In this document: piece by piece, positions 1,942 to 44,030 of the stretch
Layout of the letters: each line of letters begins with the position of its first letter
How positions within the stretch are numbered: position 1 is the stretch's first letter
Assembly: GCA_964016885.1 (NCBI GenBank)
Contig: OZ024742.1
Coordinates: 341,186,001-341,250,000, forward strand
From: Eledone cirrhosa
Lineage: Eukaryota
DNA: 64,000 nt
Direction: 5' to 3'
Program-made: the position numbers and the translations under genes
Notes under the pieces: model-generated
Databases searched by the model: none
What the model was told of the DNA's origin: nothing
The model's input: only the letters and a program-made list of their open reading frames with translations

Positions 1942-4269
<2,328 letters not shown>

Positions 4270-4344
4270 GGAAAGACCAACGGAAACATTGTTCCCTCGG
4301 TCCGATTTGACGAAAGTCGATCGTAAAAAATATATATATATATA

Positions 4345-4619
4345 GTGGGGGCACGTGGCCTAGTGGTAAGGGTGTTGGGCTTACGATCATAATGTCGTGG
4401 GCTCGATTCCTGAGTTGCGTGTTGTGTTCTTGAGCAAACACTTCATTTCACGTTGCTCCAGTATACTCAGCTGAAAATGAGTACCAGCAATAGCTGGAGG
4501 TTTAACCCTTCGATGGACTGACGTCCTATCCAGGGGTGTGTCTTGTACTCTCAGTCGATCACGCCATGAAACCGGGATAAGCACCGGCCAAATGAGCCTT
4601 CTGGCTTAAGACAGACTTT

Positions 4620-4622
<3 letters not shown>
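4345..4622 (+). mobile_element. tRNA-derived SINE, family A (CORE-like central domain)
   Basis: A-box tggcctagtggt, B-box ggctcgattcc, then tgtgttcttgagcaa..acactt. Other copies lie at ~6355-6545 and 22120-22381. Confidence 0.85.
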
Positions 4623-7664: not shown

Positions 7665-7790
7665 AGTTCAAATCCCGTCGAGGTTAACTTTGCCTTTCAT
7701 CCTTACGGGGTCGATAAAATAAAGTACCAGTAATATACTTGATAATTGCTGGCCGTGTGCCAAATGCAGAAACAATTATTATAATTATTA
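7665..7790 (+). mobile_element. SINE family B, 5'-truncated, ATT tail
   Basis: gttcaaatcccg..gaggttaactttgcctttcatcc...gtcgataaaataaagtaccag matches the longer copy at 43726. Confidence 0.88.
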
Positions 7791-7934
7791 TTGGTCTAAT
7801 CGGACGTTTCTTGTTGTGTAAGGGATATAAGCCTTGTGAAGGGGAAAGTATAATATTTGGGCCTTTTGGCCCAAATATTTGAACAATATTTGAACGTTTT
7901 ACTTTTGAAAATTTAAAAAGAAAACAAAAGAAAC

Positions 7935-9571
7935 ATGGCTGAGCCAAGCCCCCTCCCCCAGCAATATGTTAGTGGAGGGTTAGTGAAATTCATACAACAA
8001 ACACCACCACAAACAACGTGAACAAAGACAACAACACTAAGAACACTAATTTTGAAAAAATTACTACACCAACTACAACAATAACAGCGTCAACCAAAAT
8101 ACTGACAACAGAAAAAAATGACGAATGCAACAACGATATTAACATCACTAACAAGAAAATAAACAACGACAACACCAACAGCAACAATACAAATTACACC
8201 AAAAACACAACCAAATACAACAGTAATAACAGCAATAACACCAACAACACCGTTTGTAGCAACAGCAACAGCACCAACAACAATACCAATAGCAGCAGTA
8301 ACGGCAGCAATAATGGTGCCGCTGAAAAAGGGGCCACTTCTTTCGCAGGTGTGGCCCGAAATATAGAGACAGTGCTAGTAACGGAGGAGGAGATGGTAGT
8401 CGAAAGAATGACAAGGAATGAAAATAGAGTTTCCCTGAAACCTCCACCCGATTTCTTCAAAGATCAGCAACTGCGCACGGTGACTTACCGCACCGTAAGG
8501 AAAATGTCACATCGGGTGGCGAGAGCCACAGAGGCTCAAATCCAAAAGTCCTTGGGGTGCGTCTGGGCGCGCAAAACCCACATCACCCGAGGTAAAAAGT
8601 ACGCCACAGTAGACGTACTTTTCGCCACTCCCCAAGAGGCGAAGTCTCATTCTTTGGAAACCCTAAAGAGTGAGGAGATAGTCTTGGTGCCCTCCTACTG
8701 CGGACAGAAAATTGTGAGTGTCAAGTGACCCAAGCCCCGTCCTATGTGTCCATACCTTGGCTGGCCGCGCATGTACTGGCTGGAGTCGAGGAGAAGACCA
8801 CCATATTGCAAATACAGAGAATGGGAAGTGAGAACTGGTCAGGAATAGGCATGCAAATGCTAGCACAGACTAACCAGGAGTGCATCAAGGCCATCCCATA
8901 TATCATAGACCTCGAAGAAGGATTCCAGCTCCCTGTAAGCGTGGAGAGAAGGCGCCCAAAGTGCTATCTCTGTGGGCAGAAGGGTCACCTCAGAAGACAG
9001 CCAAGAAGAGGCCCCCCCTCCTTCCGATGCCGTATTTGCTGCTACCAAAAGCGAAGGCAAACGAGGAGGGGTAAAGGCTTCAAGGAAGGGTAAAGGCTTC
9101 AAGGAGACATGCAGCAACACCACCACCATCACCATCACCACCACAAGCATCACCACCAACAACAACCACACCACCACCAGCATCACCAAAAACACCAACA
9201 TCGCAAACACAACAAAACACACATACCCAACAGCAACAAGAAATCAGCAACAAAATCACTCCTCCCCAAAAAGGTACACAGCCATAAACATGGCAAATAA
9301 AGAACTCTTACAACATATAAAGCAGCACACAGACATCACATAAAAAAACTACTACACCCCACCAACACCAAGAACTCTCCCGAAAAACATAAGCATCATT
9401 GAAATCTCAATAGAACATTACAAACTTTTAAAACAAAAATTCCCCAACGCAGTTAGAGACTTCAGAGGGTCGGTTACCAAGAGGATATACACCGACATCC
9501 TCTTGGAAACACCCATGACCAGACAAAGGGACGGTTCTACTGTCCCTTCACCACAAGATCAAGGTAAGTGA
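7935..9571 (+). pseudogene. Tx1-like ORF1 (gag-like), frameshifted
   Basis: ATG GCT start, Asn/Thr-rich N-terminus, conserved RATEAQIQK..G.VW.RKTHITRGKKY block and CYLCGQKGHL knuckle. Confidence 0.85.
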
Positions 9572-9603
9572 TCCTTTCAAACTTACCCCGTTTCTCATCC
9601 AAC

Positions 9604-12396
9604 ATGGCCGTACTTAGAATAGGCAGTATAAATGTACGTGGCCTGGGGTCATCTTGGAAGCAGGGTCACCTGCTCAACGACCTCAGGTCACTAAACATAG
9701 ATGTGGTGGCCATCAGCGAGACCAGAATCTCTGGAGCACGAGCCTTCGCACCGATCTTCGGCGGCTACGATGTATACGCATTTCCCAGCCGTCCAGATTC
9801 GGGGGGAGGAGTTGCCGTGCTTTTTCGGAGAGACTTGGATCTCGCCATACGGGCCATCTTCCTGGACCCAGAAGGTAAGTTGGTGGTGCTGGACGTGACC
9901 GGCAGTGAAGGCAATGCATTCAGGCCGTCTACGCCCCAACAGGGGCAGGAAGGCCAGATTTCTTCAGACGTCTAGAGACCTTTCTTGGAACGCCCCGCTC
10001 TTTAGTGTTAGGGGGCGACTGGAACGGTATCTTAGATGCACGCTGGGATTATGTGGGGCTTGTAGACAGGGCAGGAGGGTGTAAAAGCCTCAACAACCTG
10101 CTCAGACCTTTTAAACTGTCTGACAGGTATAGACTGGATTATCCGAATGTGCTGGATTATCCGAATGTGCCAATGGCAAACCGCATCTGGTCATCCAGAT
10201 CGTATTTAGATAGGGTATTCTGTAGGGAAACAGATAAGGCTTGTGTAGGTTGTCCACAAATGAAAGTAGTCAACTACACGGACCACAAATTTATGATCTG
10301 TGAAGTTGACTTAGATAGACTCCATAGGCAAGGTCTCGGCTACTGGAAGCTGAACGCTTAAGCGTGTGTTGACGGGTTCGATTGTCAACAATAGGTGGTG
10401 GTTTACCCTGAAAAGGGCTATTAGAGTAGAATCGATAAGGTTTAGCAAAGGAGTAGTGATAGAGGAAAATAGAGTAGAGGGAGAGTTAGTTAGAAAGCTA
10501 GAAGAGGCGTTTAGGACAGGCATCGCAACCGACGTGCTAGCGGCGAGATTGGCACTCGACCAATTCTTCAACGCAAAGCATGAAGGCTGCGTTGTCAGAG
10601 CTAGAGCGCTTTCTCTAAGACACGAGGGGACGAAAGCCGTTCAATGGGCCCGGGTGGTGGAGGCGCGACGTGGAAACAAGTCCACAATTCGGTCTTTGCC
10701 TGATCAAAACGGGCGCATGTTGCTCGAACCCGAACAGATGTGTGCGGCTTTTCAACAGCACTTTGCTCAATTGTTCGGGAGCGGTGGCGGGCCGGATCGG
10801 AGTATTGACTTCGGTGCATACCTCATTGGTCTACAGGGGCTCTCGACGACCGCAGCACAGTGCTGCGAAAAGCCGATAACAGCAGGTGAAATAAGGGGAA
10901 GCGATGTCTGACTGCACGAGGGGTAAATCGCCAGGTTTGGATGGTCTGCTCTACGAGCTTTATGCGTATATGCCAGATTTGTTCGGCGACCTCTTGGCAG
11001 ATGTCTACTGCAAATGGCAGCAGAACGGGAGCATTCCCAGTTTTGTCAGCCGGGTAGCTGTGGCGCTGCTGAGAAAAGACCCGAACAAGGGGGAGGTTAT
11101 AGAACACTGCAGGCCCATAACTCTACTAAACACAGAGTTTAAGATTTTGGCCAAGGTGTTAGCAAAGCGATTGGCACTTGTCGTCGGTAATCTGATGGGA
11201 GAGGCGCATAAGTGCGCCATTCTGGACAGATCCCTCCACGACAACCTCCATCTCATGTGATACATCATAGAGAGGGTGGTTAAGGAACCTGGCACGAGTG
11301 GGGCCCTGATCAACTTAGATCAATCGAAAGCATTTAATAGGGTCGACCATCGATAGCTGGCTGCGGTCCTCGAGGCGGCCGGCTTCGGGCCCCTTTTTAG
11401 GGGCTGGATCGCTGCAATGCACAGCGACATCTGCTCGATTGTGAGGGTGAATGGTCACCTGTCGCAGCCTTTCAACATCATGCGCTCGGTCCGTCAGGTT
11501 TGTCACCTCTCGTTGCGTGGAGGACTAGGCATTCCGTGGCTGATGATGCGCAAACATGCGATGAGGCTGCGACATCTGTGGTGCTTCCTTGGCGGTGAAC
11601 AGGTGTAGTCGCCGTTTGCCAGACGCGCTTTTCCCCAGCTCGTCTCCTTGACGGAGCTGCAGTCCTGGATCAGGAAAAGACCGAGGGATAGCGCTTGGAA
11701 GCTGGAATATCTCCAAGCGCTCACCGCCCTTACCAGCTGGGCACTAGTATCGGTGGAACATCAACCTCGGCGTTCTATAGAGGGTTAGTGGAGGGAAAGA
11801 GCGACGACGTACTCCGGGAGACCCTGGGCGTCGAAGACGATCAGCTGTTCGCTCTCTTCAAGAGAACCTTCAGACCGGGGCCTATAGACAACTTCCAGAA
11901 ATCCCTGGCCTGGCAGTGCTACCGGGGAGCGTTCCCAGTTCGGGATAAGCTCTACAGGCACGGAGGTGCTGTCAGCCGAGCCTGTTCGAGATGCGCGCTG
12001 GGCGACGAAACCGTCCTGCACGCACTCGTTCAGTGCCCGAGCATTGCTGACTTGTGGAGCTATGTCGAACAGCTGCTGTCACGTGAAGGATGGATCCGAT
12101 TATCGACTGAGTTCATTGTGCAGATATCCCCGCCATCCTCCTTTAAAAAGGAGGAAGGGCAGGCAGTTTTCATCTGCCTGGTGGCCATGGCAAAAGAGAT
12201 TGTGTGGTGCACAAGGTTGAAAGGGTTGAAGATTGACACTTTCCTCTTCGGCCAATCCCTGATTAACTTTTTCAAGTTTCACTTGAAGAGGAAAATCAGG
12301 GTGGAGAGGCTAGTGCCTAGTAAGTTTGTTGAAAGGTGGGTGAAAGTGGCGAGTCTGGTCCGAGTGAACGGGCCCGCTCTGAGTATGCGCCTGTAG
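9604..12396 (+). pseudogene. Tx1-like ORF2, with stops, frameshifts and an internal deletion removing YADD
   Basis: Contains GSINVRGL, ISET, GDWN, TDHK, KSPGLDGL, RPITLLN and CSRC..DETVLHAL..C. It jumps from SVRQ to LRGGLG near 11500. Confidence 0.92.
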
Positions 12397-12659
12397 ATTG
12401 AGGAGTGGGAAAACTGAGAGAGGGTGCTTGCCCTGGTGGTCAGGATGGCCGTCGTCTTTTTGTGAGGTTTTCGCCACGAGTGACCCTCGGAGGTTTTCCC
12501 CTTTTTGGGAAATTTTTGTTGTTTTAATTTTTTTTTTATTTCTAGCCCGATTTTGTTATAACCTGTTTACACGACCAAAACCCACTTTTTATCGTCCTGT
12601 ACTGTTCTGTGCCGTCTCTGTTTTTCTTCGTGTTAGCCCTTGTGGCCAATAAAGAATCG

Positions 12660-12704
<45 letters not shown>

Positions 12705-12770
12705 ATCATTAATAATGATTTCTTTATTAACCACAAGGGTTTACATAAAGTATTATTATCATTAATAATA
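12660..12770. repeat. (ATT)n/(AAT)n tract containing a ~35-bp minus-strand Tx1 3' stub (12717-12750)
   Basis: gatttctttattaaccacaagggtttacataaagta is identical to the 3' end of copy D at 33681. Confidence 0.85.
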
Positions 12771-12958
12771 ATAATTGTTTCTACTTTTGGCACAAGGCCA
12801 GCAATTATCCCAGTGTATTACTGGTACTTTATTTTATCGACGCTGTAAGGATGAAAGGCAAAGTTAACCTCGGCGGCATTTGAACTCAGATCATAAAGGG
12901 ACATAACTGTGCTGCAAAGCATGGCGTCCGACCCTCTACCGATACTGCCAATCCATCA
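12771..12958 (-). mobile_element. SINE family B, near full length
   Basis: Reverse complement of 43726-43915. Confidence 0.9.
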
Positions 12959-12975
12959 TTAATAGTAATATTAAA

Positions 12976-15900
12976 GATTTCATTTATTGGCCACAAGGGT
13001 CGACATATAGGAGACAATACAAAAGACTGGGACAGTGGAGTTTTACAGAAAAATCGAGTAAACAATATGAATAGCAATAACAAAGTAACAATAACAATAC
13101 AACAAGAAAAATTCCACAATAGGGGTGATGGCCACCCAGGGTTCGCTCAGGTGCCCCACCAATCCTGAACGACCCGACGTTTCGAGAGCACCCTGGAAAG
13201 GCACCCCTCTCCTCCTCAAATTTACACACCTTCAGGCGCATGACCAGCTATTCTCTCCACATTCACCCACCTTTCAGCAAATGTACTGGAGGGCAGCACT
13301 TCTCCCCCCCCCCCCCTCACCTTCCTTTCCAAGTGAAACTTGAAAAAGTTGATGAGGGATTGGCCGAAGAGAAAAGTGTCTGTCTTCAGTCCTTTCAACC
13401 TCGTCCACCATACAACCTCTTTCGCTACTGCCACCAGACAGAGGAAAATTGCCTGCCCTTCCTGGCAGGTCGATCTTCACTATGGACTCGGCCGATAGCC
13501 GGATCCGTTCTACACGCGACAACAGCTGTTCGACATAACTCCACAAGTCAGTAATGCACGGGCACTGGACGAGTGCGTGCAGAACGGTTTCGTCGCTCTG
13601 CACGCATCTCGGGCAGGTCCGTCTGACAGCACTTCCGTGCCTGTAGAGTTTATCTCGAACCGGCAGTGCCCCGCGGTAGCACTGCCAAGCGAGGGATTTT
13701 TGGAAAATATCCATCGTCCCCGGCTCGAAATTCCTCCGGAACAGACTGGTTAGTTCGACTTCGTCGACTCCCAGAGCCTCTCCGAGTGCTCGTCGCACTT
13801 GCCCACCACTAATCCTCTATAGAACTTGAGAGTGGAAGTTCAACTCACCGCATTTCCCGCTGTGAGTGCTTGGCAACATTCTAGATGCCAGTCACCCAGT
13901 CTCGATCTCTTCTTGACAGAGGACTGCAGTTCAGTCAAACAAACGAGCTGCGGAAAGACCCGTCTGACAAACGGCGACCACACCTGTTCACCGTTTAGGC
14001 AGAATATCTGGAGATGCCGCAGCCTCAGCGCGTGTCTGCGCATCATTAGCCACGGCATATCCATCCCTCCACATAGAGGGTGCTGGCAGCAGATGGACCG
14101 CCTCACCAGCGGAACCTGACCCCTCCACAAGAATTTGAAGAGGAGCCGCTCCAAGATGATGAGGCGCGAACGGGGGCAAGGGACGACAGTCAGACGGTAG
14201 TAGACGACGGGCGCGATGTACGCGTTCGCCACCTTCGCTCGATCTGTCAGTGATAGCATCCTCCCAGCCCATTTCTGGGTAAGACTGGCTACCCTGCCCG
14301 TCACCTCGTCCCAATTCTTATCCACCTGGAGGTCTGGCCCGAACCAAACCCCGAGCAACTAACGACGGTTGGATGGCATGGACTTTCCTCTCCAGGTGCC
14401 GAGTTGCTAGCCCACCGACTTTTCCGGGTTAAGTTTTGCTCCCGTCAACCTTTCATATTCCTCCAATAAGTTGCCAACCACCTCGATTTCTGAGGTGTCC
14501 GACACCATCACGGTGATATCATCCGCATAAGCCGACACAGCCTTTTCGCGTCCCGGTTCGAGCGGGATGCTCTGCAACAGCTCCAGCTTCCGCAATAAAG
14601 GCTCGAGAGTCAATACGTACAGAAGAGAGGAGAGAGGGCACCCTTGACGGACCGATCGGGAGACCTGAAACGGTTCCGCGAGGTGTCCATTAATTTTGAC
14701 CACCGAGAGGGTGCCGCTGTGCATTGCAGCGATCCAGGTACCCATGGTCGACCCTATCGAATGCTTTCGATTGATTTAAATTGATCAGAGCCCCACCGTA
14801 GAGGGCTTCGAGGAGATTGGAGAACAAGTCTGGCATATTTACGTAAAGCTCGTAGGGCACACCATCCAAACCGGGTGACTTGCGCCTCATGCAGCCGACA
14901 AGGGCATCCTGAATCTCGGCTGAAGTAATTGGCTTTTCACAGCGCCCAGCGTTAACCGTCGAGAGTTGCGGCAAGCCATCGAGGTAGGGACTGAAGTACG
15001 CCACCGTCTTTGACCCGCCACTTCCCCCGAACAACCGAGAAAAATGTTAGCGAAAGGCCTCACACATCCGCTTGGAATCGCTCAGCTCGTGTCCGTATTG
15101 GTCCGTCAAAGATCGAATCGTGGTTTTATTACCACGCTGCGCCTCTGCCACGCGGGCCCATCGAACAGCTTTGGTTCCCTCGTTTCTCAGAGCACGCGCC
15201 TTAGCTCTGACAATGCAACGTTCGTGTTTCGCATAGAAGAAATGGTCTAATGCCATTCTCGCCCCCCACCATCTATTGCTGACGACTCCCCTGTCAACTT
15301 TTTCGTAACTAAATTGTTGACCTGGTCCCTGTAAACCTTACGTGCCGGAAATTACATGTTTAGCTTCCAGTAATCAGGTCCTAACCTACGCGTCTTATCT
15401 AGGTCGACCATACAGATCACACATTGGTTATCTGAATAGGCGACCGTTTTAAAACGTGGACAGCTTACACTATTTCTGTCTATTTTCCTAATGAATATCC
15501 TGTCTATATACGATCTAGATGACCCTATGCGGTTAGCCGAGGTCCACACAGGCGCATTAGGGAAATCTAGTCGGTACCTGTCAGACAATTGGAACAGGCT
15601 GATTAAGTTCTTGAGGCTTTTGCACGCCCCGCTCTTATCGGATACTCCCACACAGTCCCATCGTGCGTCTAAGATGCCGTTCCAGTCCCCGCTAACAGTA
15701 AAGGGCGAAACGTACCCAGAAAGGCTTCCAGATGTCTAAAGAAGTAGGGCCATCCTGTCCCAGTAGGGGCATAGACGGCTACCAGTCTAAAGGCACCACC
15801 TTCGTTATTGTTCACGTCCAGAACCACCAAATTCCAGTCCGGTTCCCGGAAGATCGACCTTACCTCGAGATCCAGGCCTTTCCTAAACAGCACTGCCACC

Positions 15901-18275
15901 CCGCCTCCCATTCCCGGCCGGCTAACAGATGCAAAGATCTGATCGTCGTCGAAAATGGGGGCTAGTGCGCGCGTGTCGGAAATACTGGTCTCGCTGACGG
16001 CAATTACAACCATTTCTAGAGACCTGAGGTCGTTGAGCAGGTGACCCTGCTTCCAGGACGATCCCAGGCCTCGAACATTTAAACTTCCTACTCTTAATAC
16101 GGCCAAGTTGGCAGGTTAAAAAGAGAGAGGAAGGTTTACTTACCTTCCGGGTTCTTGTGAAGTTCGGGCGGTTCGACCTCCATTCTTTTGGGAACCCCTT
16201 TAAAATTCTTGAAGTGGGTTTTACGTTCGGGGTTCCCAAGTCCCGAGGAAAGGTGTCTCGTATATCTTTGTATAAATCGAGCGACATTCGCACCAGAAAC
16301 AAATCTTCCGGCACGCGAAATGTGCTCGATTTAAACATTTCCTCCTCTTTTTGTATATTTTCACTTGGTGCTACGAAGGCCATCAATTCCTTGTTGGCCC
16401 TCCTGACGAGCACGAAGTTTTGTATGTTTTGTTGGTGTGATTTTATTTGTTCGCGTGGCTGTGGTGGTGATGGTTTTGGTGGTGTTGTTTCGGTTGTGTC
16501 TGTGTTTGTTGTGAGTGCGGTGTCTGTGGTTTCAGATGTTTGTGTGTGTCTTTGTTCTTGCGTTTGTTTAGGTTGTTTGCGTTTGGGGGATTCTGGTGAT
16601 GGTGGTGTTGATGTTGGTGTTATTGGAGAGATATTTGCGTGGGTGGTGTCTGCATTTTTTATTGTGGGTGATTTTGTGCTTTATTGAGTTTTTCTTTCCT
16701 TTTTGTGTTTCCTTTTTTGTATATTGGGGGATTTTGGTTTTCCCTCATCTTCACTACTGGTAGATGAGGGTTCTGTGTCTGTAAGTATGTCTGTGTGTGT
16801 GTTTATGTTTTTATTGGTGTGTGTTTTGGGGGGGAGGGAGAATTTGACAACTTTCCTCGTTTCCCCCCTGGGTGGTCAATGTTGGTGGTGGTCTTTCTAT
16901 TGGTGTTGTTGTTGGTGGTTTTGCCGGTGCTGGTGTTGGTTGTGGTCCTCTCTCCGGCGTCGGCAGCAGTGGAGCCTTTCGACCCCTTGCTTCTTTTAAC
17001 AGTTGAGGGCAGAAGGCTCGCAAATGGGTTTTTTCCCCACAAACAAAACAATGCGGTCTTTTGCCCTCGGTCATATGAATGACCGTCCTATTCTGAAGGC
17101 GGATGTGGTCCGGGATTGTCTTCACATTCTCGGGCCTGATCTGGAGAAGGATCTCCAGGTCAACCCCGGACGAGTCCTCTCTGACCGTTCTGGTCACTTC
17201 TATCGGGACGGTATCCGTCTCCTCCACAATCACACATCCCAGAAGCCACCACATGTCAAGTCCTGGTGGGATTCTGTGAATGCGGAGAGGGGCCGTTCTT
17301 TTTCCCATGTGGGAGGGGTACATTATGACCTTGCTGGTTTTGCAAGGAGTCATAGCGTGTTTCATAGCGAGGGCTTCTGACTTGAACAGTACCGAAATGG
17401 TGCCTTACTGTCTGCCCGTCGCTATGTATTCGGAGTCTTCTCTGATGCACCTCAGCGTGACTTCGACATTTGATTGTGGGATTAAAGCTGCTCTTTTGGT
17501 TTGTGCTGAGATGCATCTATAATGCACCGTTCTGCGCTCCACTGCCTCAATAGCTTCTACCGGGACAGTTAAGTTGGCCCAGGTTTGCTCCTGCTTGATG
17601 AACTTCCAGGCCTGGGCCAACTTTTCATCTTTGTTTGAGAGGTCCATGTTGAAGCATGGCCTCATTTTTTGCTGCCGCCGCAGCGAAAGTGTTGTTGTTG
17701 TTGTCGTTGGGGGTGTTGTTGTTGTTGTTCTTGTTGGTATTGTTGTTATCACTGTCGCTGTTATCATTGTTGTCTTTGGTGCCGCCGTTGTTCTCGGTGC
17801 AGTTGGTATTGTTGCTGTTGGTGTTGTCGCTGTTTGTTTTCATGTTAGTGGTGTTGATATTGTTGTTGCATTTGTCATTATTTCTGTTATCTGTATTTTC
17901 GTTGTCGCTGTTACTGTCATTTTTGTCAAAATTAGAGTTCTCAGTGTTGTTATCATTGCTGTCTTTGTTCACATTGTTTGTAGTGGTGTTTGTTGTATCA
18001 ATTTCTGTTAATTTCGCCGTAGCGCTCCTCTCAACTTCAACGTCGTTGTCGCAAGACAGCAGACATATCGCTGGGGGCGTGGCTCAGCCATGTTTTTTTT
18101 GTTGTTTTTTTTTCTCGATAATATTTTAAAATGTAAAAAATTTCAAATATTTGGGCCAAAAGGCCCAAATATTATTCTTTCCCCTTCACAGGGCAAATTC
18201 CAAGGACTTGTATGCCTTATATAACAACAAAAAATAAGTTTTCACAGGTAAATAAATAAACTTACGGGAGCGAGT
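12976..18275 (-). mobile_element. L1/Tx1-clade LINE copy B, full span, decayed, divergent subfamily
   Basis: ORF1 starts at 18091 (CFVCGEKTHLRAFC). ORF2 starts at 16106 (GSLNVRGL, SVRQGCPLS, AYADD, CPRC..DETVLHAL..C). The 5' UTR matches copy A and the flanks are AAT-rich. Confidence 0.92.
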
Positions 18276-18289
18276 ATTATAATAATAAT

Positions 18290-25354: not shown

Positions 25355-25427
<73 letters not shown>

Positions 25428-27484: not shown

Positions 27485-27494
27485 TAATAACAAC

Positions 27495-27550
<56 letters not shown>

Positions 27551-27552
<2 letters not shown>

Positions 27553-30500
27553 TTTTCTTTATTAACCACAAGGGTTTACATAAAGTAGACATTAAGGACA
27601 GTACAGGACAATACAGGACGGCACAAATGGGCATTTCTGCGTGTAAAAAAAAACAGCGGATGAAATAAAATAACAAAGAAAAATTCCCCAATAGGGGGGA
27701 GACTTCCGAGGGACATTTGTGGAGAAGGCCCATTCATTCGGGCCATACTTGCTTCTCTCACCCATCTTTCAACAAAATGCTGGGAACAGAGCACTTCCCT
27801 CTCTACCCTGATTTTCCTTTTCAAATGAAATTTGAAAAAGTTAATCAGGGCATCACCGAAGAGGTAAGTGCTCGTCTTCAGCCCTTTCAAACGTGTCCAC
27901 CATACTATCTCTTTCGCCATGGCCACCAGACAGATAAAAACTGCCTGCCCTTCCCGGCTAAAGGAAGAGGGCGGGGCAATCCTCACGATGGACTCAGCTG
28001 ATAGCTGGATCCGTCCTACACGTGACAGCAGGTGTTCGACATAAACCCACAAGTCAGCAATGCTCGGACACTGGACGAGTGCGTGCAGGACGGTTTCGTC
28101 GCCCTGTGCGCATCTCGGACTGCCCGGCTGACGGCACGTCCATGCCTGTAAAGTTTATCCCGAACTGGCAAAGCACCCCGGTAGCACTGCCAGGCCAGGG
28201 ATTTCTGGAAGTTGTCCATAGGCCCCGGCCCGAAAGTCCTTCCGAAGAGATTGGCTAGTTGATTTTCGTCGACGCCTAGAGTTTCTCCAAGTACGTCGTC
28301 GCTCTTCCCCTCCACTAATCCTCTATAGAACGCCAAGGTGGAGTTTCCACCGATCACATTGCCCGATTGGTCGAGGGCTGTGAGCGCCTGAAGACATTCC
28401 AGTCTCCAAGCGCTCCCTCTCGGTCTTCGCTTGACCCAGGACTGCAGCTCCGTCAAGGAGACGAGCTGGGGAAAAACGCGTCTAGCAAACGGCGACCACA
28501 CCTGATCACCGTCGAGGAAGAGGTGGAGATGTCGTAGCCTGAGCGCGTGTCTGCGCATCATCAGCCACGGCATGCCCAGCCCTCCACGTAACGGGTGTTG
28601 ACAGCAGATGGACCGCCTGACCATCGGGGCGCGTCCCTTCCACAAGAAGCGAAAGAGCAAACGCTCCAGCGCAGTCAGGCGGGGCTTATGACAAGGTACG
28701 ACAGTCAGGCGGTAGTAGATGACGGACGCGATGTACGCGTTAGCCACCTCCGCTCGACCTTTCAGGGATAGCTTCCTCTCGGCCCATTTCTGGGTGAGAG
28801 AAGCCACCCTGCTCGTCACCTCGTCCCAGTTTTTGTCCGCCTGGAGGTCTGGACCGAACCAGACCCCTAGCAATTTAACCGGTCCGTCTGTCCAGCGCCC
28901 GACGACGCTGTTGGACGACATGGACCAGCCTCGCCAGGTGCCGAGCTGCAGGCCCACTGACTTTTCCTGGTCGATCATTGCTCCTGTCACCGCTTCGTAT
29001 TCTCTTAGTGTAGTGCCGCTCGCCTCGATGTGTTTGGCGTTCGACACCACTACGGTGACATCGTCGGCATATGCTGACACGGATCTTCCGCATCCTAGTT
29101 CGCGCGGGATCCCCCTCAACGTCTCCAGTTTGTGCAGTAATGGCTCGAGAGTCAATACGTACAATAGGGACGAGAGGGGACATCCTTGGCGGACCGAGCG
29201 CATGATGTTGAACGGTTCCGAAAGGTGACCGTTCACTCTCACTACAGAGCAGATGTTGCTGTGCATGGCAGTGATCCAGCCTCTGAAGACGGGCCAAAAG
29301 CCAGCCGCCCTCAGGACTGCCTCTAGGTAGCGATGGTCGACTCTATCGAAGGCTTTCGACTGATCTAAATTGATCAAAGACCCACCCGTGCCAGGTTCCC
29401 TAGCTACCCTCTCTACGATGTATCGCATGAGGTGGAGGTTGTCGTGGATGGATATGTCGGGAATGGCGCATGTCTGTGCCTCTCCCACCAGACCACCAAC
29501 GACAAGCGCCAACCTCTTTGCTAGCACCTTGGCCAAAATCTTGAACTCTGTGTTTAGCAGAGTTATGGGCCTAAAATTATCTATGTTATCCCCCTTGTTC
29601 GGATCCTTTCTCAGCAGCGCCACCGCTCCTCGGCTCACAGAGCTGGGAATTCTCCCGTTCTGTTGCCAGTTGCAGTAGACGTCCGCCAAGAGGCCTCCGA
29701 ACAAGTTTGGCATTTGTACGTAAAGTTCATAGGGCAGACCATCCAAACCAGGCGATTTACCCCTTGTGCAACTAGTCATTGCATCCCGTACTTCAGCGGT
29801 TGTTATCGGCTTTTCGCAACACTCCGCCTCAGTGGCCGAAAGCCGCGGCAGTCCGTCGAGGTAGACACTAAAGTCCATCCCTCGATCCGGCCCGCCACTG
29901 CCCCCGAACAGTTGAGCGAAGTGTCGCTGAAAAGCTTCACACATTTGCCCGGGATCGAGTAGCATGCGCCCGTCGTGGTCCACCAAAGACCGGATCGTGG
30001 CTTTGTTGCCACGACGCGCCTCCGCCACTCGGGCCCATTGAACGGCTTTCGTCCCCTCGTGTCTGAGAGCACGCACCCTAGCTCTGACAACGCAGCCTTC
30101 GTGCTTTGCATTGAAGAATTGGTCAAGGGCCAATTTCGCCGCAAGTACGTCGGTCGCGATGCCTATTTTTCTCTATTGCTAAAGTCTTACTAAACCAAAT
30201 GGACTCTATTCTAATTGCTCTTTTCAGAGCAAACCACCACTTGTTGTTGACGATGGCCCCCGTCAACGCCCGCTTAACTAGTTCGCTAATCCGGTCTCTG
30301 TAGGCCTTGCGCGCTGGTAAGGACGCGTTTAGCTTCCAGTAGCCGGGTCCTCGTCTATGAAGCCTATCTAAGTCAAGCACACAGATCACGAATTTGTGGT
30401 CCGTGTAGCTGACTATCTTGAATTGTGGACAGCCTATGCTAGACCTATCTATTTCCCTACAAAATACTCTATCTAGATATGATCTGGATGACCCTATGCG

Positions 30501-32735
30501 ATTTGTCCAAGTCCACATTGGTACATTCGGGAAATCCATTCGGTACCTGTCAGACAGTTCAAAACGTCTGAGCAGGTTGGTGAGACTCTTGCACCCTCCT
30601 TCCCTATCCACTAATCCCACACAATCCCAGCGTGCATCTAAGATCCCGTTCCAGTCGCCCACTAACACTAAAGAGCGGGACGTTCCAAGAAAGGTCTCCA
30701 GACGGCGGAAGAAATCAGGCCGCCCTGCTCCTGTCGGGGCATAGACGGCCACTAACCTGAAAGCTTGCCCGTCTCCGCTGGTCACGTCCAGCACCACCAA
30801 CTTACCTTCTGGGTCCAGGAAGATGGCCCGTATGGCAAGATCCAAACCTCTCCGAAAAAGCACAGCAACTCCTCCCCCCCGATCCCGGACGGCTGGGAGA
30901 TGCGTACACATCGTAGCCGCCGAAGATCGGTGCGAAAGCCTGTGCTTCGGAGATTCTGGTCTCGCTGATGGCCACTACATCTATGTTTAGTGACCTGAGG
31001 TCGTTGAGCAGGTGGCCCTGCTTCCATGACGACCCCAAGCCACGCGCATTTATGCTGCCTATTCTGAGTGAGGTCATGTTGAAAAGGAGTGGAAAAGATG
31101 GGAAAGACCACTTACCTTACTTCTCGTAAGGGAAGGATGGTTTTTCCATCCTTTTCACTGCTTGTGGCCTCCTCAGGAAGGATGTCCTTATAAATCCTCC
31201 TGGAGAGTGCTTGTCGGAAGTTTCCGATGTCTTTGGGGAATTTTTGTTTTAGTGTCATGTACGTTTTCTGTGTGATGCGAGTGATTTGTATGTGTGGAGG
31301 TGGTGTGAATTTTGGGGTTGTTGTGTAGTCTTTTTCTGTGATGCTGGTGTTGTGTTGGATGTAGTGTAATAATTGCTTGTTGTTCAAATTTAATGCTGTG
31401 TAGTGTGTATCGTTTTGGTTGTTTTCTTTTGTTTGCGTTTGTTGTGGGTTTGTTTCTGTTTCGCATTTTGGTGACTTTTGTGGTGTAGGTGATGGTGGTG
31501 TTGGAGTTAATGATGGTGATGGTGTTGGTGTTTGGGTTGATGGGGTTGGTGATGCTGGTGTGGATGGTGGCATATCTGTCCTAACTTTTTTGTTTCTTAG
31601 TTTATTTGTTTCCCTCTGTATTTTGTTTCTGGAGGGGGAAGGAAGAGAATTTTTTCTTTTTTGGTTTCTTTTTTTTTTTCCGGATATCGTTTCCCACTCC
31701 TCGTCGTCACAATCTGTCTCCAGTTGTGATAGGCCGGGGAGTGGAAAATCCTCCACAGGCGTTAGTTTTGGTTGTGGCGTGGTGGATGGTGTAGGCGCTG
31801 GTGCTAGTTCTGAAGCGTTGGGTGGTGGTGGTGTTGGTTTTGCTGGTGGTGGTGGTGGTGTTGGTTTTGCTACTGTTGCTGGGGTTGTTGCTGTTATAGT
31901 TGCTTCTGTTGTTGCTGCTACAGTTGTTGCTGCCATCTCTGCTACTGGTGGTGTTGATGGTTGTGTCACTGGGGTGGGTAGGAGAGGTGGCCTCAACCTT
32001 TTAGCCTGATGGCAGAAAGCCCTTAGGTGGGTTCCTTCACCACAAACGACACACCTAGGTCTTTTGCCCTTGACAATTACCGTGAGGTGGCTGCCGTCAG
32101 TGAGGTCTATTACCTCTGGGATCTCCTCAATGCTATTTTTGGTCCGCTTGGATCAGGAGCTCCATCCCAGATCCGGACCAGTTCTCCTGCTTTTCTTTTG
32201 CTATTGCTATTATTTTCGTGTTGGCTTCGATGCCGGCGAGGACAGCCGCTATTAGCCAGGGAATTTTGATGGCCGGTGGAACGTGGGTCACCCTGATCTT
32301 TACGAGTCTCTGGCCACAATAGCTTGGGACGAGTGTGAAGTCGTCACTTCTTAATGGGGCCATGGAGTGTTCTCTAGCCTCCTCTGGTGTTTCAAAGAAC
32401 ACGTCCATGGTTCCATACTTTTGCCCACGTCTGATGTGGGTTTTTCTTGCCCACACATGTCCCAAAGCTATTTGGATTTGGGACTCGGATGCCCGTTCCA
32501 CTCGGCGCGATTTTACATTTATTGTTCTATACGACACGGTGCATAGGCGCCGATGCTCCATTTTATTAGGTGGGGGGTGAGGCTGACCCTGTACCCATCT
32601 TTCTTTACCATTTGTTTGGCATTTTCTAAATCCTCCTGAGTTACCGTAAATGCTTCGAACTGTTTTGCTACTCTGGCGAAACTGAGGGGGGGGGGGGGTT
32701 ATAATGTCATTGTTGTTGTTGTTGCTATCGTTAAT
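27551..32735 (-). mobile_element. L1/Tx1-clade LINE copy C, 5'-truncated in ORF1
   Basis: ORF2 31077-27730 is broken by frameshifts and a deletion near 30165, and is nearly identical to copy D. ORF1 remnants lie at 32700-31112. Confidence 0.94.
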
Positions 32736-32740
32736 ATTAA

Positions 32741-33629: not shown

Positions 33630-33682
<53 letters not shown>

Positions 33683-33942
33683 TTTCTTTATTAACCACAA
33701 GGGTTTACATAAAGTAGACATTAAGGACAGTGCAGGACAATGCAGGACGGTACAAATAGGCATTTCTGCGTGTAAAAAAACAAAAACAGAGGATGTAACA
33801 AAAATAACAATGAAAATAACAATGAAAAATTCCCCAATAGGGGGGAGACTTCGGAGGGACATTTGTGGAGAAAGCCCAGTAAAAAGCCACAATGACCCTG
33901 ACCACCAAGGCAAGTGCCCTCTCCCAGTTTTCCACCTTTAGT

Positions 33943-36900
33943 TTACAGATATATACTCAGAGTCGGCCCATTCACTCGGGCCATTCTTGCTTCTCTCACC
34001 CATCTTTCAACAAAATGCTGGGAAGAGAGCACTTCCCTCTCTACTCTGATTTTCCTTTTCAAATGAAATTTGAAAAAGTCAATCAGAGCATCACCGAAGA
34101 GGTAAGTGCTCGTCTTCAGCCCTTTCAAACGTGTCCACCATACTATCTCTTTCGCCATGGCCACCAGACAGATAAAAACTGCCTGCCCTTCCCGGCTAAA
34201 GGAGGAGGGCGGGGCAATCCTCACGATAGACTCAGATGATAGCTGGATCCGTCCTAAACGCGACAGCAGGTGTTCGACATAAACCCACAAGTCAGCAATT
34301 TTCGGACACTGGACGAGTGCGTGCAGGACGGTTTCGTCGCCCTGCGCGCATCTCGGACATGCCCGGCTGACGGCACCTCCATGCCTGTAGAGTTTATCCC
34401 GAACTGGCAAGGCTCCTCGGTAGCACTGCCAGGCCAGAGATTTCTGGAAGTTGTCCATAGGCCCCGGCCCGAAAGTTCTTCCGAAGAGATTGGCTAGTTG
34501 ATTTTCGTCGACGCCTAGAGTTTCCCCAAGTACGTCGTCGCGCTTCCCCTCCACTAATCCTCTATAGAACGCCGAGGTGGAGTTTCCACCGATCACATTG
34601 CCCGATTGGTCGAGGGCTGTGAGCGCCTGAAGACATTCCAGTCTCCAGGCGCTCCCTCTCGGTCTTCGCTTGACCCAGGACTGCAGCTCCGTCAAGGAAA
34701 CGAGCTGGGGAAAAACGCGTCTAGCAAACGGCGACCACACCTGATCACCGTCGAGGAAGAGGTGGAGATGTCGTAGCCTGAGCGCGTGCCTGCGCATCAT
34801 CAGCCACGGCATGCCCAGCCCTCCACGTAGCGGGTGTTGACAACAGATGGACCGCCTGACCATCGGAGCACGTCCCTTCCACAAAAAGCGAAAGAGCAAA
34901 CGCTCCAGCGCAGTCAGGCGAGGCTTAGGACAAGGTACGACGGTTAGGCGGTAGCAGATGACAGACGCGATGTACGCGTTAGCCACCTCCGCTCGACCTT
35001 TCAGGGATAGCTTCCTCTCCGCCCATTTCTGGGTGAGAGAAGCCACCCTGCTCGTCACCTCGTCCCAGTTTTTGTCCGTCTGGAGGTCCGGACCGAACCA
35101 GACCCCTAGCAATTTAACCGGTCCGTCCGTCCAGCGTCCGACGACGCTGTTGGACGGCATGGACCTGCCTCTCCAGGTGCCGAGCTGCAGGCCCACTGAC
35201 TTTTCCTGGTTGATCATTGCTCCTGTCACCGCTTCGTATTCTCTTAGTGTAGTGCCGATCGCCTCGATGTGTTTGGCGTTCGACACCACTACGGTGACAT
35301 CGTCCGCATATGCTGATACGGATCTTCCGCATCCTAGTTCGCGCGGGACCCCCCTCAATGTCTCCAGTTTGTGCAGTAATGGCTCGAGAGTCAATACGTA
35401 CAAGAGGGACGAGAGGGGACATCCTTGGCGGACCGAGCGCATGATGTTGAACGGTTCCGACAGGTGACCGTTCACTCTCACCACAGAGCAGATGTCGCTG
35501 TGCATGGCAGCGATCCAGCCTCTGAAGACGGGCCCAAAGCCAGCCGCCCTCAGGACTGCCGCTAGGTAACGATGGTCGACCCTATCGAAAGCTTTCGACT
35601 GATCTAAATTGATCAAGGACCCACCCGTGCCAGGTTCCCTAGCTACCCTCTCTACGATGTATCGCATGAGGTGGAGGTTGTGGTGGATGGATCTGTCGGG
35701 AATGGCGCATGTCTGCGCCTCTCCCACCAGACCACCAACGACAAGCGCCAACCTCTTTGCTAGCACCTTGGCCAAAATCTTAAACTCTGTGTTTAGCAGA
35801 GTTATGGGCCGGAAATTGTCTATGTTATCCCCCTTGTTCGGATCCTTTCTCAGCAGTGCCACCGCTCCTCGGCTCACAGAACTCGGAATTCTCCCGTTCT
35901 GTTGCCAGTTGCAGTAGACGTCCGCCAAGAGGCCTCCGAACAAGTCTGGCATCTGTACGTAAAGTTCATAGGGCAGACCATCCAAACCAGGCGATTTACC
36001 CCTTGTGCAGCCAGTCATTGCCTCCCTTACTTCAGCGGCTGTTATCGGCTTTTCGCAACACTTCGCCTCAGTGGCCGAGAGCCGCGGCAGTCCGTCGAGG
36101 TAGACACTAAAGTCCATCCCTCTACCCGGCCCCCCGCTGCCCCCGAACAGCTGAGCGAAGTGTCGCTGAAAAGCTTCACACATTTGCCCGGGATCGAGTA
36201 GCATGCGCCCGTCGTGGTCCACCAAAGACCGGATCGTGGCTTTGTTGCCACGACGCGCCTCCGCCACTCGGGCCCATTGAACGGCTTTCGTCCCCTCGTG
36301 TCTGAGAGCACGCACCCTAGCTCTGACAACGCAGCCTTCGTGCTTTGCATTGAAGAATTGGTCAAGGGCCAATTTCGCCGCAAGCACGTCGGTCGCAATG
36401 CCTTTGCTAAGCGCCTCGTCTAATTTTCTAACTAGTTCTCCCTCTGCTCTATTTTTCTCTATTGCTAAAGCCTTACTAAACCTAATCGATTCTATTCTAA
36501 TCGCTCTTTTCAGAGCAAACCACCACTTGTTGTTGACGATGGCCCCCGTCAACGCCCGCTTAACTAGTTCGCTAATCCGGTCTCTGTAGGCCTTGCGCGC
36601 TGGTAAGGACGCGTTTAGCTTCCAGTAGCCGGGTCCTCGTCTATGAAGCCTATCTAAGTCAAGCACACAGATCACGAATTTGTGGTCCGTGTAGCTGACT
36701 ATCTTGAATTGTGGACAGCCTATGCTAGACCTATCTATTTCCCTACAAAATACTCTATCTAGATATGATCTGGATGACCCTATACGGTTTGTCCAAGTCC
36801 ACATTGGCACATTCGGGAAATCCAATCGGTACCTGTCAGACAGTTCAAAACGCCTGAGCAGGTTGGTGAGGCTCTTGCACCCTCCACCCCTATCCGCTAA

Positions 36901-37362
36901 TCCCACACAGTCCCAGCGTGCATCTAAGATCCCGTTCCAGTCGCCCACTAACACTAAAGAGCGGGACGTTCCAAGAAAGGTCTCCAGACGCCGGAAGAAA
37001 TCAGGCCGCCCTGCTCCTGTCGGGGCATAGACGGCCACTAGCCTGAAAGCTTGCCCGTCTCCGCTGGTCACGTCCAGCACCACCAGCTTACCCTCTGGGT
37101 CCAGGAAGATGGCCCGTATGGCGAGATCCAAACCTCTCCGAAAAAGCACAGCAACTCCTCCACCCGATCCAGGACGGCTGGGAGATGCGTACACATCGTA
37201 GCCGCCGAAGATCGGTACGAAGGCCCGTGCTTCGGAGATTCTGGTCTCGCTGATGGCCACTACATCTATGTTTAGTGACCTGAGGTCGTTGAGCAGGTGA
37301 CCCTGCTTCCATGACGACCCCAAGCCACGCGCATTTATGCTGCCTATTCTGAGTGAGGTCAT
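33943..37362 (-). CDS. Intact Tx1-like ORF2: APE endonuclease + reverse transcriptase + Zn finger (1139 aa)
   Basis: GSINARGL, ISET, VGDWN, YLDRVF, TDHK; DQSKAFDRVDH, SVRQGCPLS, AYADD, LLGV; CPRC..DETVLHALVQC. Confidence 0.97.
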   Translation of the reverse strand: MTSLRIGSINARGLGSSWKQGHLLNDLRSLNIDVVAISETRISEARAFVPIFGGYDVYASPSRPGSGGGVAVLFRRGLDLAIRAIFLDPEGKLVVLDVTSGDGQAFRLVAVYAPTGAGRPDFFRRLETFLGTSRSLVLVGDWNGILDARWDCVGLADRGGGCKSLTNLLRRFELSDRYRLDFPNVPMWTWTNRIGSSRSYLDRVFCREIDRSSIGCPQFKIVSYTDHKFVICVLDLDRLHRRGPGYWKLNASLPARKAYRDRISELVKRALTGAIVNNKWWFALKRAIRIESIRFSKALAIEKNRAEGELVRKLDEALSKGIATDVLAAKLALDQFFNAKHEGCVVRARVRALRHEGTKAVQWARVAEARRGNKATIRSLVDHDGRMLLDPGQMCEAFQRHFAQLFGGSGGPGRGMDFSVYLDGLPRLSATEAKCCEKPITAAEVREAMTGCTRGKSPGLDGLPYELYVQMPDLFGGLLADVYCNWQQNGRIPSSVSRGAVALLRKDPNKGDNIDNFRPITLLNTEFKILAKVLAKRLALVVGGLVGEAQTCAIPDRSIHHNLHLMRYIVERVAREPGTGGSLINLDQSKAFDRVDHRYLAAVLRAAGFGPVFRGWIAAMHSDICSVVRVNGHLSEPFNIMRSVRQGCPLSSLLYVLTLEPLLHKLETLRGVPRELGCGRSVSAYADDVTVVVSNAKHIEAIGTTLREYEAVTGAMINQEKSVGLQLGTWRGRSMPSNSVVGRWTDGPVKLLGVWFGPDLQTDKNWDEVTSRVASLTQKWAERKLSLKGRAEVANAYIASVICYRLTVVPCPKPRLTALERLLFRFLWKGRAPMVRRSICCQHPLRGGLGMPWLMMRRHALRLRHLHLFLDGDQVWSPFARRVFPQLVSLTELQSWVKRRPRGSAWRLECLQALTALDQSGNVIGGNSTSAFYRGLVEGKRDDVLGETLGVDENQLANLFGRTFGPGPMDNFQKSLAWQCYRGALPVRDKLYRHGGAVSRACPRCAQGDETVLHALVQCPKIADLWVYVEHLLSRLGRIQLSSESIVRIAPPSSFSREGQAVFICLVAMAKEIVWWTRLKGLKTSTYLFGDALIDFFKFHLKRKIRVEREVLSSQHFVERWVREARMARVNGPTLSIYL

Positions 37363-37397
37363 GTTTAAAATAGAGTGGAAAAGATGGGAAAGACCAC

Positions 37398-39472
37398 TTA
37401 CCGTACTTTTGGTAGAGGAGGGATGGTTTTTACATCCCTTTTCACTTGATCGTCTGGTGAAGGGACCGTTGAATCGTCCCTTCGGCTGGTCGTCGGCTCT
37501 TCTAAGAGAATGTCTGAGTATACTCTTCGATTGATGGTTCCTCCTAGGTCCCTGAAATCACCAACTGCGTTGGGGAATTTCGTTTTAATGTTTGTGTATT
37601 GTTTCTGTGCTATTTTTAGCAGTCTTATGTTAGTTGGCGTTTTGATTGGTGCTGGTATTATGTAGTCCTTTTGTGAAATGTCTGTGTGTTCAATTATGTA
37701 AGTCATTAGTTTCTTGTTGTGTGTATTTATTGCCGTGCATTTGTTTTTCTGGGGGTGGGGTGTGGTTCTGCTATTTTCTTGTCGTTGTTGCTGGGTGTGT
37801 GTGTTTTGTTGTTGTGTTTGCGATGTTGGTGCTTGTGGTGGTGGTGTTGAAGGTGTTGTTGGCGGTGGGGTTGTCGCCGGTGGTGATGGTGGTGCTAGTG
37901 TGGGTGGTGATGGTGTTGGTGTTGTTGCTGCTGTGGGTCTCTTTGCAGTAGACTTTACCCTTTTCTCATTTCTTTCCTCCCTTTTCAAAGGCGACGATGC
38001 GCTGCTTCTGCGTTTGTGCCTTCTTGCGACCTTTTGCCATCCCTCTCCCACCTCACACTCCATGTCTGATTCTGTGAGGTCGGGGAGGGGTACCAGCTCC
38101 ACTCTTTCACTTGTTGTTGGTGATGTTTGCACTGGAGTCTCTGTTGCAGCTGCATTTGGTATTGCTGTTGTTGTTGTTAATATTTCCACTGCTGCTGCTG
38201 TTTTTGATTTCCGTGGCGTGGGTATGGGTGCCACGGACCTATCGTTCCTGGTTGCCGCTTGTCCTGTTGCTGGTAGCCGTGGAGCCGGATTCGGAAGGAG
38301 GGGGGTTTTCTCCTTTCTCAGGGTCTTCTCGTTGCAGAAGGCCCTGAGGTGAGTCTTCGATCCACAGCGAAAGCATTTCGGGCGTTTGCCCTCAACACTT
38401 ATGGGCAGTTGAGTGCCGTTATCGAAGTCTATCACATCCGGGATAGCTTCGATGCACTCCTGGTTGGTTTGGATTAGCATCTCAATGGAGGAGCCGACCC
38501 AATCTTCTCTTACTTTTTTCTGTACTTGCAGTACAGTTGTTTTGTCCTCGATTCCGATTAGGACAGACGCGGCCAGCCAAGAAGGGGTCATTCCGGGGGG
38601 GGGGGGGCGTGGGACAGTTTGACCCTCACAATTTTTTGCCCGCAGTAGGAGGGCACCAACACCATTTCCTCGCTCCTTAGGGTCACTACTGATTGGGCCT
38701 TTGCCTCCTGGGGTGTGGCAAAAAGTACGTCTACGGTGGCATATTTTTTGCCTCGGGTGATGTGCGTTTTCCGCTGCCACACAGACCCCAAGGCTTTTTG
38801 TATTTGGGCCTCTGTGGCTCTTTCCACCCTACGGGATTTTGTACTTACTGTACGGTACGTGACCGTACAGTGCTCTTGGGTTTTGAAAAATTTTTCCGCT
38901 GCCTTGCAGATTGCTCGGTGTCCGTTCTTTGTCACCATCTTCTTCGCTTCCTCTAATTCCTCATTTGTTATGAGGATTGTTTCCAAGTTTTTCGCAATAC
39001 CTGCAAATGAGATTGGTTTTTCTCTGCTGTTGTTGTTGTCGTCAGAGCTGCTGGTACTTTTGTTGTTGCTGCAGGTACTACGACTACTGCCTCCGCCGCT
39101 GTTGCTGCTAATGCTGTTGTTGTTTATGCTGCTGGTGATGCTGTTGCGGCTGCTACTGTTGTTTTCATTGTCACTGTTGCAGTTGTTATTACGGCTGCTA
39201 CTGCTATTATTCCTGACGTCAGACGAATGAACTGGGTTTTCGTATTTCCCGCACACCTGTTTCGTCGCTGTCGTCGTCGTCGTGGAGAAACCTTGCACGC
39301 TTTGCACGAGACTTTTCTTTTCTTTCGTCACTTGCGAAAGAGAAGGGAGGGAGAGAGACACATTTAAAGAAGGGAGGGAGAGAGACAATCTTCTCTCTGC
39401 TGTAGTGATGATTGAGGAAGAAGAAGACGGAATGAGTGGGAGTGACGTATGAAATTTCTTTTTCGTAGCCAT
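37398..39472 (-). CDS. Tx1-like ORF1 (~690 aa), single frameshift in a G13 run at 38595-38607
   Basis: Two overlapping ORFs join at the homopolymer. Contains the CFRCGSKTHLRAFC knuckle and the aaacaacATGGCT start shared with copies A and B. Confidence 0.88.
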
Positions 39473-39864
39473 GTTGTTTTTTTGTTTAAAATGAAATTTT
39501 GGGTACAAAACCCCAATAACTGGTTATTTAACCCCGAAGGGCCAAATAACGGACAGAAAGACCCCTCTCACGAGGAGGAGGGTGTCTTTATCAACAATTT
39601 GGTTCAAGTTTTAAACAATTTACAATTGTTTTAACGGTTAAAAATTACTATACCTTACAGAGCCGAGCCTCCGTCAACCATGGCATTCAATAATAATAAT
39701 AATAATACAATGGGAAGACGTGTTATGGAACTTTTCCATGGTGTTCCAGGTAAGCGCTCCCTAAGGAAGTAGCTAGATATTCAGGGAGTGTATATATACA
39801 CTCCGTGTGTGTATATATATATATATATTGGAAAATGTGTGAAGTCCTTGGTACAGTTAGGTAT

Positions 39865-43510: not shown

Positions 43511-43554
43511 GTACCACTGATGATGTTGCAGATGTGCAACGAAAGAACTTTGTA
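43511..43554 (+). ncRNA. Type I hammerhead motif
   Basis: tacca CTGATGA t gttgca-gatg-tgcaac GAAA gaac TT tgta. Confidence 0.75.

Positions 43555-43994: not shown

Positions 43995-44030
<36 letters not shown>

Follow-up and report, generated by a model that had tools for sequence, protein, structure and literature searches.

The 64,000-nucleotide (nt) stretch analyzed here (the window; Eledone cirrhosa assembly GCA_964016885.1, contig OZ024742.1, positions 341,186,001–341,250,000 of the forward strand) contains four copies, A–D, of a long interspersed nuclear element (LINE) with two open reading frames, termed ORF1 and ORF2. Each copy carries a 5′ splice-site (donor) motif, GGTAAGT, at the end of ORF1. 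Our analysis indicates that this motif is probably a selected U1-binding site, all possible uses of the site being taken together. The strengths assigned to this and the other readings are judgments and not computed posteriors.

The product of D ORF2 matches Pfam families PF03372, PF00078 and PF13966, and its best match in the PDB is human LINE-1 ORF2p (E 1e-52, residues 5–854). An N-terminal APE domain, a reverse transcriptase (RT) and a C-terminal zinc region, together with a separate upstream ORF1, a short spacer, a polyadenylation [poly(A)] signal and a repeat tail, place the copies in the L1 clade in the wide sense (L1 plus Tx1). A CxxCx4Hx4C motif (one CCHC knuckle) is readable in the ORF1 sequence, and a Pfam search with the ORF1 pieces of the window gave no match. 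An intact relative, the 603-residue protein P0007, shows feature matches of 0.91–0.92 to CCHC clusters, with recognition below threshold. ORF1 proteins of the RRM/zf-CCHC type are linked to Tx1 in the consulted part of PMC5203782. The Tx1 label given to these LINEs in the initial annotation is plausible. The named ORF1 relatives come from Octopus sinensis, O. bimaculoides and O. vulgaris, which points to an octopus host. Target preference is a feature of Tx1 elements; here (ATT)n runs occur at the 3′ ends of A, C and D and also close to the 5′ ends of A, B and D, with tail and target being indistinguishable. Rfam returned no match, and the viral and prokaryote sequence collections contained no DNA of this family.

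Identities in the 5′ part of ORF2 are 0.71 (A–B), 0.86 (A–C) and 0.73 (B–C), and the last 330 nt of ORF1 are 0.54–0.69 identical between copies. C and D share 95–97% identity over a segment that starts 43 nt before the donor and extends through ORF2; their donor segment therefore belongs to one lineage, and the number of independent lineages is three instead of four. The arrangement of A and B is tail to tail, with ~300 nt between them (12660–12990). C and D stand in tandem on one strand, ~1 kb apart, in the layout that read-through splicing would need. Within drifting 3′ untranslated regions (3′UTRs), the 3′ ends of A–D contain the invariant blocks CCCTTGTGG..AATAAA and CCC.T.TTG.G.AATTTTT, which are candidates for an RT recognition signal.

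The donor motif at the end of ORF1

The initial annotation described a conserved donor motif 37–40 nt before ORF2 in all four copies. We find GGTAAGT in each, with the G of GT at 9564 (+), 16143 (-), 31115 (-) and 37401 (-), and the distance to the ORF2 start is 40 nt in A, 37 in B, 38 in C and 39 in D. What does not stand is the count of four independent copies, given the segment that C and D share. The U2-type donor consensus is MAG/GTRAGT (the slash marks the cut); as the annotation held for U1, it is matched at nine of nine positions in A, B and C and at eight of nine in D. Duplexes with the U1 5′ end are predicted at -10.4 to -12.2 kcal/mol for the four copies. The spacer is pyrimidine-rich, as described (71% in A, 74% in B and 81% in C), and the CAAC-ATG context of the ORF2 start is conserved along with the 37–40-nt spacing. 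A pattern running from the motif to the ORF2 start has four matches in the window and none in 100 shuffles, but it was built from the copies themselves and demonstrates homology only.

The reading frame of the ORF1 stop differs relative to the motif, again in agreement with the annotation: A ends GGT AAG TGA, and C and D read xGG TAA. Copy B most likely ends GGT AAG TAA, in the frame of A, judging from the sequence across a frameshift and from P0007, which ends PPDQGK. The ORF1 C-termini would then be Gly-Lys-stop in A and B, and Arg-stop in C and D. The stronger statement, that coding constraint does not explain the motif, survives in part: the frame does change between A and C/D, but a Gly-Lys-stop end in two of the three lineages prevents its full exclusion.

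In A, the exact reverse complement of GGTAAGT lies 11 nt downstream within the spacer, giving a 7-bp hairpin over the donor (9563–9587, +), and in B another 7-bp hairpin forms. A conserved hairpin was considered and rejected, as the registers differ and only that of B is significant. A second donor-like sequence occurs within ORF2 of A, in the codons for E-G-K of the segment DPEGKL. It is also found in C (30805; 30800–30808, -), is weaker in D (37091) and is lost in B. The O. sinensis gene model XP_036360308.1 contains 61 residues of ORF2 and ends at DPE, the phase of this second donor, which suggests that annotation of the family donor may be reflected in the model. An O. sinensis tectonic-3-like model (P0001) contains an ORF2 piece that ends at the second-donor phase.

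GGTAAGT is not rare in the window (18 occurrences versus 9.2 expected), so the evidence is its conservation at the ORF1 end and not its presence. In the alignment of A, B and C, AAGGTAAGT is the only invariant run of more than 4 nt before ORF2 (ORF1 end and spacer); it is 9 nt long, and the next longest run is 4 nt. For comparison, the ORF1 end has 79 invariant columns among 256 and the spacer 7 among 28 (a background of 25–31%), and ORF2 has 89 among its 205 fourfold sites. The number of runs of at least 9 expected in 284 columns is 0.005 at a rate of 0.31 and 0.08 at 0.43, rising to 0.38 if the most lenient pairwise rate is applied. GTAAGT is thus better kept than its flanks in A, B and C, and it is kept across two frames. 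Among 86 matches in a 50% protein library, the informative ones are P0007 (DQGK) and P0089, whose C-terminus KQG is compatible with the frame of C/D. P0006 and P0011 have other C-termini; these are protein records only, from which the donor is not readable. Protein searches with the ORF1 C-termini gave no match.

Distant relatives served as an outgroup. Of 80 distant L1/Tx1-like loci taken, 34 had a locatable APE Asn codon and enough upstream DNA; 10 without the anchor motif, 2 near a contig end and 34 without an N-terminal match were left out. The window copies carry the motif at approximately -65 from the APE Asn codon. GGTRAG or GTRAGT occurs 30–150 nt before this codon in none of the 34 distant loci (31 clusters), and the donor is therefore specific to this family and not a general L1/Tx1 trait. 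GTAAGT was observed nearer to the codon, downstream of the element's own ATG, in three near-identical loci (L036, L038 and L040), and GTAAGC farther upstream in L031 and L033.

The chimeric copy D and predicted splicing

Copy D is a chimera whose junction coincides with the donor position. Its ORF1 is A-like up to GATCAAG, exactly where the GT of A starts, and matches 38 of the last 45 pre-donor nt of A. Downstream of the junction D is C-type, comprising the 43-nt ORF1 end (which follows CAG in C, G at 31158), the spacer and ORF2. The crossover is confined to the 2-nt AG common to the A-type exon end and the C-type CAG. The join is 43 nt out of register and duplicates the last 14 ORF1 codons, and is therefore not a product of in-register recombination. 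If the break could fall anywhere in 100–350 nt, coincidence with the donor has a chance of ~1–3% by rough arithmetic. A 1412-nt contig from sequencing run X5 (depth 78) spans the junction and shows 17 differences as well as 8 gap letters, indicating that the D form exists beyond this locus, although depth is not copy number. Splicing between neighboring copies, or an RT jump onto a cut 5′ exon, could explain the junction.

A cut at the donor keeps the whole of ORF1 and loses all of ORF2. This position, the chimera and the precedent of copia lead us to favor, tentatively and at somewhat below an even chance, use of the donor for an ORF1-only mRNA made by splicing out spacer and ORF2. U1 would bind the donor overlapping the ORF1 stop, and part of the transcripts would lose spacer and ORF2, with ORF1 being joined to the 3′ end of the element. 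The acceptor would be a T tract plus YAG in the 3′UTR, giving an intron of ~3.5 kb in C/D, and ORF1p would gain a short new tail at its C-terminus. Transcripts left unspliced would still serve as the template for ORF2p and in retrotransposition. The purpose would be an excess of ORF1p over ORF2p, as with copia gag. The donor may also swap ORF1 between families, with read-through RNA being spliced into the next element and retrotransposed to found chimeras like D; we consider this additional role unlikely.

Candidate acceptors (Table 1) were ranked by an ad hoc score over the AGs downstream of the donor. The predicted spliced product of C/D has 20 added residues and a stop before the poly(A) signal. 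The best 3′UTR site of each lineage puts a common C-x-V segment in one frame, which has a 1 in 9 chance and carries little weight. Of the 19 intact distant loci, 3 attain rank 1 and 6 attain at least rank 2, none with the scores of A or D.

Table 1. Coordinates of the LINE copies, donor motifs, candidate acceptors and chimera junction in the window
Feature	Position	Strand	Remarks
Element A	~7793..12700	+	decayed; ORF1 from 7935; AATAAA at 12648; (ATT)n tail; ends approximate
Element B	~12970..18280	-	decayed; the most divergent copy; AATAAA at 12988; ends approximate
Element C	~27490..32690	-	5′-truncated; AATAAA at 27563; (ATT)n tail; ends approximate
Element D	~33630..39680	-	full length; ORF1 begins at 39472 and has one frame break; ends approximate
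D ORF2	37362-33943	-	open, 1139 amino acids; APE, RT, zf-RVT
D 3′ end	AATAAA at 33692	-	(ATT)n tail
A donor, AAG/GTAAGT	9561..9569	+	overlaps ORF1 end GGT AAG TGA (stop 9569-9571), phase 1
A spacer and ORF2 ATG	9570..9606	+	pyrimidine-rich, AG-free; ATG 9604-9606, CAAC context
B donor, AAG/GTAAGT	16138..16146	-	likely ORF1 end GGT AAG TAA; ORF2 start TTG at 16106
C donor, AAG/GTAAGT	31110..31118	-	ORF1 end AGG TAA, phase 2; ORF2 ATG at 31077
D donor, ACG/GTAAGT	37396..37404	-	ORF1 end CGG TAA, phase 2; ORF2 ATG at 37362
Second donor-like AAG/GTAAGT in ORF2 of A	9872..9880	+	codons E-G-K of DPEGKL
Candidate 3′UTR acceptor in D	33745..33766	-	T tract and CAG, 73 nt before AATAAA; rank 1 of 261
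Candidate 3′UTR acceptor in C	ends at 27637	-	same site as D; rank 2 of 247
Candidate 3′UTR acceptor in A	12524..12545	+	T tract and TAG; rank 1 of 234; not positionally homologous to C/D
Chimera junction in D	37444..37446	-	A-type ORF1 to A-type donor position, then 43-nt C-type ORF1 end

The window stretch is matched in 20 listed runs from 16 studies, none of them recorded as RNA. The junction search covers 4 of 24 listed runs, aligned to D; the alignments comprise 1983 joints, of which 15 are shown, 4384 loose ends and 1087 differences. Joints shown for run X1 have depths of 43–163, which makes a high-copy family of spliced retrocopies unlikely; rare forms may exist. The raw-read run X22 gave low-complexity matches only, and run X20, which we guess to be RNA, has no depth at the donor. 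One X5 joint, 38480–38735, has GT..AG ends in the orientation of the element and was rejected as a splicing product: its sites are weak, and a skip without GT-AG has the same depth (67.4), so that the two probably belong to one divergent contig. No ORF1-only copy was found here, and the donor motif has no match in the searched part of the supplements of PMC9115989.

Weighing the readings

The initial annotation proposed that splicing at this site yields ORF1-only or ORF1-fusion mRNAs, or that U1 binding regulates the ORF2-bearing RNA. Conservation, the outgroup result of 0 of 34 and the chimera junction support a selected U1-type site; the fusion part of the proposal is unlikely, for reasons given below. 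Several observations weigh against a spliced donor. Its main weakness is the acceptor: alignment puts the 3′UTR candidates at three non-homologous places, the best in B ranks only 10 of 202, and the ranks are inflated because GC-rich ORF2 offers few competitors. The annotation also called for genomic copies with precise deletions starting at the GT. There is none at 37401 among the 15 joints shown of ~2,000, and none of the aligned internal deletions of A, B and C has GT-AG ends. The 1412-nt contig of X5, a run whose nature is not recorded, crosses the donor unspliced. Only three lineages lie behind the conservation. The D chimera is a single event noticed post hoc, the CAG on the C side of its junction has no pyrimidine tract, one extra base in D restores the frame at the join, and microhomology joining of a truncated copy would give the same junction. 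Copy A is itself a mosaic (5′UTR and first ~500 nt 77–92% B-like, ORF1 core 66–81% D-like; 7800–8450, +), and its junction, in or near an AAC-rich tract, has no evident donor. Finally, an overlapping RUNX3 site has been proposed as the reason why human L1 retains a conserved donor, according to the part of PMC5860796 consulted.

The absence of a conserved acceptor is accommodated if U1 binds with splicing being rare, and keeps transcripts from being polyadenylated too early, within the A-rich 3′ half of ORF1, thereby allowing full-length RNA with ORF2 to be made. This explanation, which we hold to be rather unlikely, draws on the same conservation evidence. The last 400 nt of ORF1 are 38–45% A, a poly(A) hexamer lies 188–330 nt upstream of the donor in each copy with none in ORF2 of A, C and D, and folding predictions pair part of the donor with neighboring bases in each of the four copies. 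U1 suppression of poly(A) sites is the model for this explanation, and the HIV-1 donor blocks an upstream poly(A) site. However, the hexamers match composition (1–2 seen, 0.7–1.3 expected) and differ in position, the folding is significant only in B (z of -2.6; -0.5 to -0.9 in the others), a non-splicing site would be free to lie anywhere in the spacer, and the chimera junction points to actual cutting at the GT. The same junction is left as a coincidence if the motif is neutral, that is, if an ancestral ORF1 end Gly-Lys-stop was spelled GGT AAG T, the protein end and stop kept most of the letters, and chance kept the rest. The Gly-Lys end of A, B and P0007 fits such an origin, E-G-K codons of ORF2 likewise yield a perfect donor, and with very many elements scanned, one ORF1 stop or another should carry a donor by chance. 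In the counted parts of C and D ORF1, GGT and AAG are rare (2 of the 19 Gly and 14 of the 60 Lys codons, respectively), and Gly-Lys would therefore be spelled GGT AAG ~2.5% of the time. By rough arithmetic, even if E/Q-G-K-stop is fully constrained at the protein level in A and B, the neutral chance is ~0.5–2%, the product of ~0.30 for three free positions between A and B and 0.02–0.06 for eight positions on the C branch following the change of frame. We regard neutrality as improbable.

Two further explanations seem to us very unlikely, the second marginally more so. The motif could match U1 by accident while serving as another cis signal, such as one for ORF2 termination-reinitiation, an internal promoter or a protein-binding site. 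It does overlap the ORF1 stop, with the CAAC-ATG context and 37–40-nt spacing kept, and the human L1 donor is embedded in a transcription-factor site (PMC5860796, in the part consulted). A 9-nt signal of another kind would rarely equal the MAG/GTRAGT consensus, and no positive evidence points to another factor. Alternatively, a mini-intron of 52–59 nt that starts at the donor and ends at an AG within codons 5–7 of ORF2 would remove stop and spacer and fuse ORF1 to ORF2. The spacer is AG-free, the first AGs end 51–59 nt past the donor, and an in-frame AG is available for each phase (CAG at 52/53 in C/D, TAG at 59/56 in A/B). But both AGs are a by-product of the conserved R-I/V-G codons, the first TAG in A is out of frame and the ORF2 start context is conserved. 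Moreover, an RT-encoding RNA should be copied in cis to leave many intron-less copies, of which there are none among the 15 joints shown. We also rejected a role as an intron mimic against HUSH, since protection there is independent of the 5′ splice site (PMC8770142, in the part consulted).

Neighboring repeats and known systems

Segments 1–1773 and 1942–3713 form an inverted duplication, 99.5% identical, with an RT-bearing ORF (143–2032, -; 2102–3571, +) that has only a weak Pfam RT match and that we take to be Penelope-like with a GIY-YIG-type end. The 389-residue frame at 50705–51874 (-) has no Pfam match and resembles the C-terminal GIY-YIG-like part of another Penelope-type element. An RT fragment (PF00078) lies at 25310–26716 (+) and a zf-RVT-bearing fragment with what looks like a restriction-like endonuclease at 32686–33483 (+); the two may be parts of one R4/Dong-type element interrupted by C. 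Short interspersed repeats, present in many copies, are found at 3789–4622, 7665–7790, 12754–12959, 18274–18764, 43462–44763 and 52973–59673, and several adjoin (ATT)n runs at LINE ends.

The octopus LINEs resemble L1/Tx1 LINEs in an ORF1 with one putative CCHC knuckle, in an ORF2 with APE, RT and zf-RVT, and in AATAAA followed by a short-repeat tail, and differ from the 34 distant relatives in having a donor at the ORF1 end. The parts consulted of PMC13282606 describe 13 recently active L1-Tx1 families in O. vulgaris; splicing and ORF1 are not mentioned in the main text. In human L1, splice sites are conserved and spliced RNAs are retrotransposable, yielding SpIREs (PMC5860796, in part). The SpIRE donor lies in the 5′UTR within the RUNX3 site and its splicing is harmful, whereas the octopus donor overlaps the ORF1 stop; the sole candidate spliced retrocopy here, D, is a chimera, is found at high depth in another run and has a junction that fits GT-AG splicing between elements. 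Splicing of antisense TART RNA is described in the consulted part of PMC1636488. In the literature searched, which lay outside most subscription papers and Repbase notes, we saw no account of a donor conserved at the ORF1 stop of a LINE.

LINEs require ORF1p in large excess over ORF2p, a ratio ascribed to poor translation of ORF2 on a bicistronic RNA, and splicing is regarded as harmful to them. The Ty1/copia elements offer the closest likeness, as a donor at the end of the structural gene would remove the polymerase gene and yield an mRNA for the abundant protein. For copia of Drosophila and EVADE of Arabidopsis, a gag subgenomic RNA made by splicing is described in the consulted part of PMC7197481. 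Those are long terminal repeat (LTR) elements with one gag-pol ORF in which splicing is shown, whereas the octopus LINE has two ORFs, its own ORF2 start and a splicing event that is predicted. HAL1 elements are ORF1-only derivatives of L1, and an ORF1-only RNA carrying the element's 3′ end would be the expected source of a HAL1-like element.

If the donor at the ORF1 stop is indeed selected, it would represent a LINE using the copia solution, and splicing, if shown, would be a variant of a strategy known from LTR elements. Exchange of ORF1 via the donor, if true, would provide a concrete route for ORF1 swapping in LINE evolution and for the origin of ORF1-only elements. A selected donor would also make these LINE copies ready-made exon donors in octopus genes.

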